From sequence record OM386662.1: a stretch of DNA of 64,000 nucleotides. One strand, written 5' to 3'. The notes under the pieces were generated by a model. That model ran no database searches and was not told where the DNA came from. It saw nothing but the letters and a program-made list of their open reading frames with translations. Below are positions 14,008-19,277 of the stretch, piece by piece (positions within the stretch are counted from its first letter, which is position 1; each line of letters starts with the position of its first letter). Source of the stretch: Escherichia phage vB_EcoM_ESCO47. Both the position numbers and the translations under genes were made by a program.

Positions 14008-14592
14008 ATGATTAAATTAGTATTCGCATGTGCACCGACAAAAACCGTAGACGATAAAAACGAATATGCTTTTGGTCTTAATGACGGACTTCCATGGGGA
14101 CGTATCAAAAAGGACCTTCAGAATTTCAAGGCTCGCACTGAAGGAACTACAATGATTATGGGTGCTAAGACTTTCCAATCGTTGCCAGGATTATTACCAG
14201 GTCGAACTCATATTGTTGTAGCTGATATCTCCCGGGGCTATCCTGAAACTAAAGATGGCGACCTAGCTCATTTCTATATTACCTGGGCTGAATACATAGC
14301 TTTTGTAACCGGTGGCGAACTTCAGTTATCTAGCCCTAATGCACCATATAATCCAATTATTGGTCAAAATACCAATGTGAGTATTATTGGCGGTCCTGCT
14401 TTGTTAGAAGCTGCTCTTCCATACGCTGATGAAATCATTATGACCAAAATTGTTAAGCGGCATCGTGTGAATTCTACGGTCCAATTGCCTATTTCTTTTG
14501 TCTGTAGTGTTATGCTTAATCGTACTATGGTAGAATCTCATTACTATCAAATTGACGAATTAACTGAAATTACTGAGAGCATTTATAAATGA
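14008..14592 (+). CDS. frd: Dihydrofolate reductase
   Basis: ATG at 14008 after SD AAGGA; 194 aa [31 protein letters not shown]... matches T4 Frd; track ORF begins at an upstream TTG. Confidence 0.9.
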
Positions 14593-15449
14593 AACAATAC
14601 CAATTCTTGATTAAAGATATTTTAGAAAATGGTTATGAAACCGACGACCGGACTGGCACAGGAACTATTGCACTATTTGGTACTAAATTGCGTTGGGATT
14701 TGACTAAAGGGTTCCCTGCAGTAACAACCAAGAAATTAGCATGGAAAGCCTGTATTGCAGAACTTCTTTGGTTCCTATCAGGAAGTACTAACGTAAATGA
14801 TCTGCGTCAGCGTACTCACGGCAGTCGAACCGAAGGTAAAACTATTTGGGATGAGAACTATGAAAACCAGGCAATTGGCTTAGGATATTCTGATGGTGAA
14901 TTAGGTCCTGTATATGGGAAACAATGGCGAGATTTTGGCGGTGTCGACCAAATTATAGAAGTTGTTGATTGTATTAAAAAACTGCCAAATGATCGGCGTC
15001 AAATTGTTTCTGCGTGGAATCCGGTCGATATTGACCAAATGGCTCTTCCTCCTTGTCATATGTTCTATCAATTTAATGTGCGTAATGGACATCTTGATTT
15101 ACAATGGTATCAACGCAGTGTAGATGTTTTCTTGGGCCTGCCGTTCAACATCGCCTCGTACGCCGCCTTGCTACATATTGTAGCGAAGATGTGTAACCTT
15201 ATCCCAGGTGATTTAGTGTTCTCAGGCGGCAACACTCATATCTACAGCAATCATGTAGAACAATGCAAAGAAGTTCTTCGTCGTGAACCTAAAGAGTTGT
15301 GTTCTCTTGAAATTAATTGGCCTAGTAATTTTGAGAATTGGCCTACAAAAATCCAAATGGACTGGGTTACTGGAACGATGACACATTCTGATTTCGTTCT
15401 TAAAAATTACGAATCTCATCCATCTATCAAAGCTAAAATGGCGGTATAA
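14589..15449 (+). CDS. td: Thymidylate synthase (uninterrupted, no intron)
   Basis: 286-aa continuous [34 protein letters not shown]...[10 protein letters not shown]...; same length as spliced T4 Td; start overlaps frd stop (ATGA). Confidence 0.95.
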
Positions 15450-15704
15450 ATGATTTTACGTTTTATTAATTCATATGGCACCACAATTTTTGAAATAAAA
15501 AATCCTACCGAACTAGATATCCCTTCACCGAATAGTGAAATCACAGTTAAAGGTGAACGATTCATTTGTTATTCACACGAACGAATTTATGAATATCGCG
15601 AATTTTGTGGTGGTTACGGTATGGAAAAAGAACCATTGGTTTATTTCGATATCACGGTCTTGACACCTAAAGAATACAAAGAAATTATTGCTGAGGATAA
15701 TTAA
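15450..15704 (+). CDS. Hypothetical small protein
   Basis: 84-aa ORF starting immediately after the td stop (TAAATG). Confidence 0.5.
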   Translation: MILRFINSYGTTIFEIKNPTELDIPSPNSEITVKGERFICYSHERIYEYREFCGGYGMEKEPLVYFDITVLTPKEYKEIIAEDN

Positions 15705-18047: not shown

Positions 18048-18098
18048 GAATTTTAATTATAATTGACTCATGGATGAGTCACTATTGAGAGAATATAA

Positions 18099-19277
18099 AT
18101 GAGTACAGTTTTTAATACACAACAAGTTGATGTTTTGAACGAACCTATGTTCTTCGGTTCAGGTCTCGGTCTTGCACGTTACGATATTCAACGACATAAA
18201 GTTTTTGAAGAGCTTATCGAAAAGCAGCTCTCGTTCTTTTGGCGTCCCGAGGAAGTAAACTTGATGTTGGATTCAGCCCAGTTTAATAAGCTTCCACAGT
18301 TCCAACAGGACATCTTTACCAACAACCTTAAGTATCAATCATTATTAGATTCTATCCAAGGCAGAGCACCATCTGCGGTACTTATGTCATTGCTTTCAGA
18401 CCCTTCATTAGATACATGGGTCGCTACATGGACTTTCAGTGAAACTATTCACTCTCGTTCATATACTCATATTATGCGAAATCTTTATACAGATCCATCG
18501 AAAGTATTTGATGAGATTGTATTAGATGACGCAATTATGAAGCGTGCCGAATCTATCGGACGATATTATGATGATGTTCTGGTTAAAACTCGAGCTTGGG
18601 AAAATTCTAAAGAATTTGTAGAACAAGCTAAAGAATCTCCTGATGCCGACCTTCGTTTAAACCAAGCTATTAAACAAGAGTCTGAAGCTAAACGAGACCT
18701 AATGAAATCTCTTTATCTTTGTTTGCATGTCATCAATGCATTGGAAGCTATTCGTTTTTACGTGTCTTTTGCTTGTACTTTCAACTTCCATAAGAATATG
18801 GAAATTATGGAAGGCAATGCGAAGATTATGAAGTTCATTGCTCGTGATGAACAGCTCCACCTCAAGGGCACTCAATATATTATTCGTGCTTTACAAGACG
18901 GTGAAGACGGTGATGAATGGGTCAAAATTGCTCAAGAGTGTGAACAAGAAGCAGTTGATATTTTCATGGAAGTTAACGCTCAAGAAAAAGAATGGGCTGA
19001 ACACTTGTTTAAAGATGGTGCTCTTCCAGGCCTAAATGTTAAAATCCTAAGTGAATTTGTAGATTATCTAACCGTGTCTCGTATGCGTAGTTGCGGTCTA
19101 CCATGTCCTCTTAAAGACATATCAACTCGTCATCCTATTCCATGGATTCGTGAGTATTTGAACTCTGATTTGGTTCAAGCTGCACCACAAGAAGTTGAGA
19201 TCAGTTCTTATCTTGTCGCTCAAATTGATAATGACGTCAACCAAGATGTAATAAATTCATACAAAAAATATTTCTAA
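18099..19277 (+). CDS. nrdB: Ribonucleotide reductase small subunit (uninterrupted, no intron)
   Basis: 392-aa continuous ORF; R2-type sequence (radical-site region ...VSFACTFNFHKNMEIMEGNAKIMKFIARDEQLHL...). Confidence 0.95.
   Translation: MSTVFNTQQVDVLNEPMFFGSGLGLARYDIQRHKVFEELIEKQLSFFWRPEEVNLMLDSAQFNKLPQFQQDIFTNNLKYQSLLDSIQGRAPSAVLMSLLSDPSLDTWVATWTFSETIHSRSYTHIMRNLYTDPSKVFDEIVLDDAIMKRAESIGRYYDDVLVKTRAWENSKEFVEQAKESPDADLRLNQAIKQESEAKRDLMKSLYLCLHVINALEAIRFYVSFACTFNFHKNMEIMEGNAKIMKFIARDEQLHLKGTQYIIRALQDGEDGDEWVKIAQECEQEAVDIFMEVNAQEKEWAEHLFKDGALPGLNVKILSEFVDYLTVSRMRSCGLPCPLKDISTRHPIPWIREYLNSDLVQAAPQEVEISSYLVAQIDNDVNQDVINSYKKYF

Follow-up and report, generated by a model that had tools for sequence, protein, structure and literature searches.

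Uninterrupted td and nrdB genes and endonuclease-free spacers in the RB69-like Escherichia phage vB_EcoM_ESCO47

In phage T4, the thymidylate synthase gene td and the ribonucleotide reductase gene nrdB are each split by a group I intron that carries a homing endonuclease gene, and further endonuclease genes stand free in the spacers nearby. Why, then, are both genes continuous, and these spacers free of such genes, in Escherichia phage vB_EcoM_ESCO47 (OM386662.1), of whose roughly 168-kb genome a single stretch of 64 kb, here called the window, was analyzed? A preliminary description of this DNA had concluded that the region around td and nrdB appears free of the T4 selfish elements. Our analysis agrees, as neither a homing endonuclease open reading frame (ORF), nor an intron RNA signal, nor a DNA remnant of these elements was found there. 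The explanation that we propose is that the phage is an RB69-like Mosigvirus, and that it very probably carries uninvaded (empty-site) alleles of loci that hold two introns and four free-standing endonuclease genes in T4. What the preliminary description missed is the RB69-type context, in which this arrangement is ordinary.

A comparison of ORFs with T4 shows the window to be fully syntenic with T4 ~91.8-160.6 kb, in reverse orientation. The gene run starts with 38-34, rnh, dsbA, 33, 59, 32, frd.2, frd.1, frd and td, continues with nrdA.2, nrdA, nrdB, denA and rnlA, and leads on to 24, 23 and, last, 12. The closest relatives at the DNA level all belong to Mosigvirus, with about 87-89% identity over 13900-19800 and about 94% over 20000-44000; the lower identity of the first block is partly due to a divergent patch at 13850-15040, discussed below. 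The order 59-32-frd.2-frd.1-frd-td-nrdA.2-nrdA-nrdB-denA-rnlA is found without insertions, and a DAHP synthase gene typical of RB69-type phages is present. Judged by its sequence, the window is that of an RB69-type (Mosigvirus) T-even phage.

The td gene (14589-15449, + strand) is one uninterrupted ORF of 286 aa, and its product matches the Pfam thymidylate synthase model (PF00303) over the full length of the model (1-266 of 266, E 1e-97). In a global alignment to T4 td there is one large gap, 1017 nt long and corresponding to the T4 intron, and the gene is otherwise collinear with the spliced T4 gene; at the protein level, identity is 81% to spliced T4 Td and 92% to RB69 Td. By alignment to T4, the equivalent of the intron insertion point falls between 15137 and 15138. 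The same holds for nrdB (18099-19277, + strand), one uninterrupted ORF of 392 aa with a match to Pfam PF00268 (Ribonuc_red_sm) and a product 85% identical to that of T4. Each of its alignments contains a single gap, of 598 nt against T4 and of 1091 nt against the Mosigvirus JM10, corresponding to the intron of either phage, and the gene is otherwise collinear with spliced T4 nrdB, which places the insertion-point equivalent between 18774 and 18775 (alignment to T4). The continuity of both genes, as reported in the preliminary description, is thus confirmed by Pfam and by alignments in which the T4 introns are the only gaps. As a separate observation, nrdB contains a hypervariable stretch of about 100 nt with an indel (18600-18700, 50-64% identity to RB69 and phage MM02), flanked by sequence of 86-100% identity to MM02.

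Is there any trace of a group I intron at the level of RNA structure? At the Rfam gathering threshold nothing matched in the window, but we rejected this null as evidence, as the same setting also misses the known introns of T4 and JM10. It was replaced with Rfam scans at E-value thresholds that included intron-bearing positive controls. Under these conditions the group I intron model RF00028 detects both T4 introns (40.3 and 35.7 bits) and both introns of the phage vB_EcoM_PTE-Eco05 (36.1 and 33.9 bits), and at this setting gives no match in the window, neither at E<=10 over 11500-20000 nor at E<=0.1 over all 64 kb. The insertion points show neither an interruption of at least about 200 nt nor a covariance-model core. 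Because RF00028 has no match at a setting that detects the controls, and because the ORFs are continuous, td and nrdB contain no intron, and the absence of introns from the window is solidly supported by the two lines together. It also follows that phage group I introns with an ORF go undetected at the Rfam gathering score, and that a null result at the default setting is not proof of intron absence.

The homing endonucleases were sought in the same window as proteins, as ORFs, and as DNA. The T4 annotation has I-TevI, I-TevIII, mobE, segG, and segD where the preliminary description had placed them (in the td and nrdB introns and in the nrdA-nrdB, 32-59, and 23-24 intervals, respectively), as well as segE, which it had not listed, between inh and uvsW; all six lie inside the syntenic span. 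When these six proteins and the two intron endonucleases of JM10 were compared with the window by tblastn, the best E value was 0.12. This value came from the HNH queries I-TevIII and MobE, while the GIY-YIG queries (I-TevI, SegD, SegE, SegG, and the JM10 td-intron ORF) reached 0.73 at best. In a reciprocal ORF census all six T4 enzymes were without a counterpart in the window, segE being missing in the same way as segG, mobE, and segD, whose absence had been claimed before. Blastn of the T4 and JM10 introns and of the endonuclease-holding T4 intervals gave no match other than the regulatory ends that two of the spacers have in common with T4. For the census, 86 stop-to-stop ORFs, which tile the window, were compared with T4, and because they leave only one uncovered stretch of at least 100 nt, the 59-32 spacer, no hidden selfish element is expected. 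Only five window ORFs are without a T4 orthologue, namely the DAHP synthase gene, a 74-aa ORF (phrog_3609), an 89-aa ORF (phrog_6003), and ORFs of 42 and 48 aa; the Pfam and PHROGs scan took in unmatched ORFs of at least 74 aa, hence three of these five. In the other direction, the T4 ORFs nrdA.1, nrdB.1, frd.3, 30.3, 30.4, 30.6, 31.2, and cd.1 also have no counterpart in the window.

One GIY-YIG ORF was nevertheless found, the only one in the window. It is denA (19305-19715, + strand), encoding the 136-aa endonuclease II (EndoII; GIY-YIG Pfam E 5e-6; phrog_1111), and it starts 27 bp 3' of nrdB, just past the block that the preliminary description had covered. We considered whether denA could be a homing element and rejected this, as it is a conserved resident EndoII orthologue and not mobile: DenA is 76% identical to T4 DenA, and the gene occupies the same position in T4, RB69, MM02, and JM10.

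Close relatives do carry the elements. JM10 (PP400777) and vB_EcoM_PTE-Eco05 (PQ306573) share the genus and backbone of the window, with 87-88% identity in the block. In JM10, the td intron is 1016 nt long and carries a GIY-YIG ORF of 245 aa, and the nrdB intron, of 1091 nt, carries a full-length HNH ORF of 269 aa; in PTE-Eco05, moreover, nrdA is present as two ORFs with a free-standing mobE-like HNH gene between them (3223-6382 of its record). No group I intron signal was found at the nrdA split site of PTE-Eco05, and its split nrdA resembles the genes-in-pieces type of ribonucleotide reductase. At all three sites occupied in JM10 and PTE-Eco05 (td, nrdB, and nrdA), the window has the empty allele, nrdA being unsplit at ~17128-17139, the aligned position of the mobE-like gene. 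The nrdB intron of JM10 (8230-10499 of its record) is 98.3% identical to that of T4 outside the region deleted in T4. Over 45 nt on each side of the insertion point, JM10 differs from T4 at only 1 of 90 positions, against 9 of 90 for the window and 8 of 90 for RB69, and this near-identity contrasts with only ~78% identity between the genes of JM10 and T4 as a whole. The JM10 flanks are thus a clear co-conversion tract from a T4-like donor into Mosigvirus. The elements circulate inside this genus, and the alleles of the window are the empty-site side of a known presence/absence polymorphism.

As a rough figure only, 750 (~72%) of the 1038 phage records that match td cross the td insertion point unbroken at a query coverage of at least 80%; in about 195 records a further match lies at a separate place, as a split gene would give. 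A corresponding count of intronless nrdB genes, based on a 300-nt junction query, was confounded and was dropped: the first ~60 nt of the query lie in the hypervariable stretch, so that few hits reach 80% coverage, and the two pieces of a gene split by the T4-type intron, which has only 598 nt, can be joined into one place.

Could the sites be empty as a result of resistance, either because they have drifted beyond recognition by the endonucleases or because the phage excludes relatives that bear them? The 38-bp equivalent of the I-TevI homing site was read directly at 15111-15148 (+ strand), with target size and cleavage positions taken from Edgell, Gibb and Belfort (PMC2988022). Six of its 38 positions are unlike T4, including a C for T right before the insertion point, which might be taken in favor of drift, but the cleavage motif CAACG (CNNNG) is kept at 15111-15115, at the correct distance from the insertion point. 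I-TevI, moreover, tolerates many substitutions in its site. JM10 shares four of these six differences in its td exon context and yet carries the intron, so that RB69-type td alleles are invaded in nature. Given the intact motif and spacing and the invaded JM10 allele, the empty td site is probably still cleavable by I-TevI and open to invasion. RB69 is identical to the window (100%) over 15100-15149 and hence has the same C before the insertion point, whereas T4 and JM10 have a T. Group I introns generally need a U at the 5' splice site. As for exclusion, complete exclusion of T4 by RB69 has been reported (PMC2993671), which gives the idea some plausibility, but no exclusion gene could be assigned from the window. 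Taken together, we regard resistance in either form as highly improbable.

A different question is posed by a mosaic patch of ~1.2 kb (13850-15040, + strand), which runs from the 3' end of frd.1 through frd and ~450 nt into td. Identity to RB69 and MM02 is 56-90% per 50 nt within the patch and 92-100% from 15050 on, with 90-100% identity to RB69 over 15050-17300. Searched against the phage collection, the patch matches Phage NC-G and ESCO10 best, at 84.9%, and nothing above 85%. Its right edge lies ~70 nt upstream of the I-TevI cleavage motif, and we therefore considered the boundary as a homing scar. This was mostly rejected, since the patch spans neither the cleavage site nor the insertion point, which also makes a simple break-repair origin unlikely. 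It is conceivable, if unlikely, that an endonuclease stimulated exchange by breaking or nicking the DNA close to the td homing site, that an intronless phage of a third lineage supplied the donor for repair, and that the patch is the footprint of this event; if this were true, the empty td allele would be a product of homing-site traffic and not a bystander.

The same patch would be the main exhibit for secondary loss, in which one or both introns or the free-standing endonuclease genes were present in an ancestor and were removed precisely when it recombined, in a mixed infection, with an empty allele, the patch being imported donor DNA. Exposure of such an ancestor is plausible, as relatives in the same genus have introns, and nuclease genes have been reported to lie at boundaries of phage genetic exchange (PMC10055350). 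Against this, the patch lies wholly upstream of the cleavage site and the insertion point, and the sequence from 15050 on, which includes both, is 92-100% RB69-type. Since RB69 is itself intronless, the imported DNA is not the segment that would have borne the intron. Neither insertion point, moreover, has a T4-type conversion tract of the kind seen in JM10 nrdB, and blastn with the intron sequences found no remnants in the window. We consider secondary loss decidedly unlikely.

What do the spacers hold in place of the T4 endonuclease genes? Those between 59 and 32, nrdA and nrdB, and uvsW and inh measure 109, 51, and 50 bp, so that none of these three has room for an intron or an endonuclease gene, which leaves the 24-23 spacer of 424 bp. 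Aligned to T4, none of the spacers contains an endonuclease gene. The 59-32 spacer (12184-12292, + strand) gave no tblastn match to SegG and contains the late-promoter-like TATAAATA. Of the T4 59-32 interval, the last 68 nt alone match the window (12226-12293, 78% identity), and this shared part we take to be the operator region of gene 32 autoregulation. In the uvsW-inh spacer (44027-44076), which lacks segE, only 35 nt of the T4 interval match.

The nrdA-nrdB spacer (18048-18098, 51 bp), from which T4 mobE and nrdB.1 are missing, had been described as holding only a palindrome. The palindrome TGACTCAT-GG-ATGAGTCA is indeed there (18064-18081, + strand), kept in a weaker form in RB69, MM02, and JM10, but it is not alone. 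It is preceded by a middle-promoter-like motif (18041-18063, + strand) that consists of a MotA-box-like GCTTTA overlapping the nrdA stop codon, 11 nt, and a TATAAT located just before the palindrome, and which runs into the start of the spacer; it is followed by a Shine-Dalgarno sequence. No terminator was predicted in this spacer on the coding (+) strand. For phages without mobE, Wilson and Edgell reported that nrdB has its middle promoter either within the spacer or where nrdA ends, with no terminator (PMC2790892), and the arrangement seen here fits this pattern. The motif makes it probable that nrdB is, in addition, transcribed from a middle promoter lying across the nrdA stop codon. On a side note, MotA-box-like elements of the form GCTTNA, 10-13 nt, TANNNT occur 37 times on both strands of the window against 14.8 expected, with copies just 5' of the early/middle genes 32, nrdA, and nrdB (e.g., 12184-12207, 15706-15728, and 18041-18063), and would be consistent with middle promoters of the T4 type.

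The 24-23 spacer (48866-49289) lacks segD and holds in its slot an ORF of 89 aa (48967-49236, + strand; phrog_6003, function unknown), which had earlier been described as unrelated to SegD. Could this ORF, or the 74-aa ORF at 23439-23663 (phrog_3609, function unknown), be a degenerate or novel mobile gene that has taken an endonuclease slot? The position invites the idea: the 89-aa ORF lies exactly at the place of T4 segD and in its orientation, which is antisense to late genes 23 and 24; a sigma-70-like promoter of its own is located at 48908-48936, and both small ORFs are of unknown function. But neither has a nuclease domain in Pfam or PHROGs or resembles a T4 Seg or Mob protein, tblastn giving no similarity to SegD for the 89-aa ORF, in line with the earlier description; and 89 aa cannot accommodate a GIY-YIG or HNH enzyme together with a DNA-binding domain. 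The spacer with its ORF is, moreover, a fixed feature of about 120 Mosigvirus records (98-99.5% identity), unlike a sporadic element. A hidden selfish element in either place is hardly credible. The spacer also contains a hairpin (49246-49265) that would act as a terminator when read on the - strand.

Among the remaining features, nrdA (15792-18047, + strand) is a continuous gene of 751 aa with the Pfam domains ATP-cone, Ribonuc_red_lgN, and Ribonuc_red_lgC. Between td and nrdA lies an 84-aa nrdA.2 homologue (15450-15704, + strand; Pfam DUF5496; phrog_2458; tblastn with T4 nrdA.2, E 5e-13), and the reciprocal ORF comparison found no counterpart of T4 nrdA.1 in the window. The 74-aa ORF has neither a Pfam match nor a T4 counterpart, and sits in the cd.x cluster with pseT on one side and the DAHP synthase gene on the other. 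The latter (24352-25344, 330 aa; Pfam PF00793, E 1e-75; phrog_5045) occupies the place of T4 cd.1/31.2; it is an auxiliary metabolic gene that is annotated in relatives too, e.g., as aroF in phage phi25-307. Finally, sub-threshold Rfam matches on both strands at 47483-47655 (MicX, 32.6 bits; Atu_C8), at the convergent rnlB/24 junction, probably reflect a bidirectional terminator hairpin and not a small RNA.

All of the above is most simply accommodated by alleles that were never invaded. The empty sites would comprise the 59-32-frd-td-nrdA-nrdB-denA block and the 23-24 and uvsW-inh junctions, and td and nrdB would be translated from unbroken mRNA. Elements of this kind spread in mixed infection, where the endonuclease cuts the empty site and repair copies the occupied genome, and because they spread in this manner, their distribution is patchy even inside a genus. 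Nothing special excludes them from this phage; absence is common and the load of T4 exceptional. A history without invasion is favored because the nrdB flanks are RB69-like and not T4-converted, and because of the C before the td insertion point. A few points weigh against this interpretation. Homing endonuclease genes may lie outside the 64-kb window; a locus never invaded is not strictly separable from one at which recombination with an empty allele has brought about a precise, scarless reversion; it is clear from the frd-td patch that the block has exchanged DNA with another lineage; and it is from sequence that we infer cleavability of the empty sites by I-TevI, I-TevIII, MobE, and SegG.

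In itself the result matters little; it establishes that the window belongs to an RB69-type Mosigvirus. It has a minor practical value, as it provides clean empty-site alleles of td, nrdA, nrdB, 59-32, 23-24, and uvsW-inh, and pairs of empty and occupied phages from the same genus could serve in homing or marker-exclusion crosses.

How does this arrangement compare with known systems? In T4 (NC_000866; 137.5-149.2 kb and 104.9-114.4 kb), the resident genes and their order are the same as in the window, and only T4 has the 1017-nt td intron with I-TevI, the 598-nt nrdB intron with a truncated I-TevIII, and mobE, nrdB.1, nrdA.1, frd.3, segG, segD, and segE. In RB69 (Mosigvirus RB69; AY303349 / NC_004928), the order and strand of rnh-59-32-frd-td-nrdA.2-nrdA-nrdB-denA-rnlA are identical to those of the window, td and nrdB are likewise intronless, segG and mobE are likewise missing, and the spacers are short; the nrdA-nrdB palindrome and the region upstream of gene 32 are also common to both. 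The two differ in an extra ORF, ORF245c, between 32 and frd.2 that only RB69 has, and in sequence, with ~87% identity overall across 13900-19800 and lower values in frd (69%) and in parts of td (83% over its 5' 549 nt) and nrdB (79% over its 3' 503 nt). Gene order in RB69 and MM02 is that of the window and gene lengths are nearly so, with td at 861 nt and nrdA at 2256 nt, and with nrdB at 1173 nt (390 aa) in RB69 against 1179 nt (392 aa) in MM02 and the window. RB69, the type phage of Mosigvirus, has been listed as without homing endonuclease genes (PMC2993671, Table 5), and T4, with 15 of them, was described as an oddity by Edgell, Gibb and Belfort, most T-even genomes having few (PMC2988022). 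The intronless, endonuclease-free state is the ordinary and already published condition of RB69-type phages: absence relative to T4 is the default, and it is the comparison with T4 that makes an ordinary state look notable.

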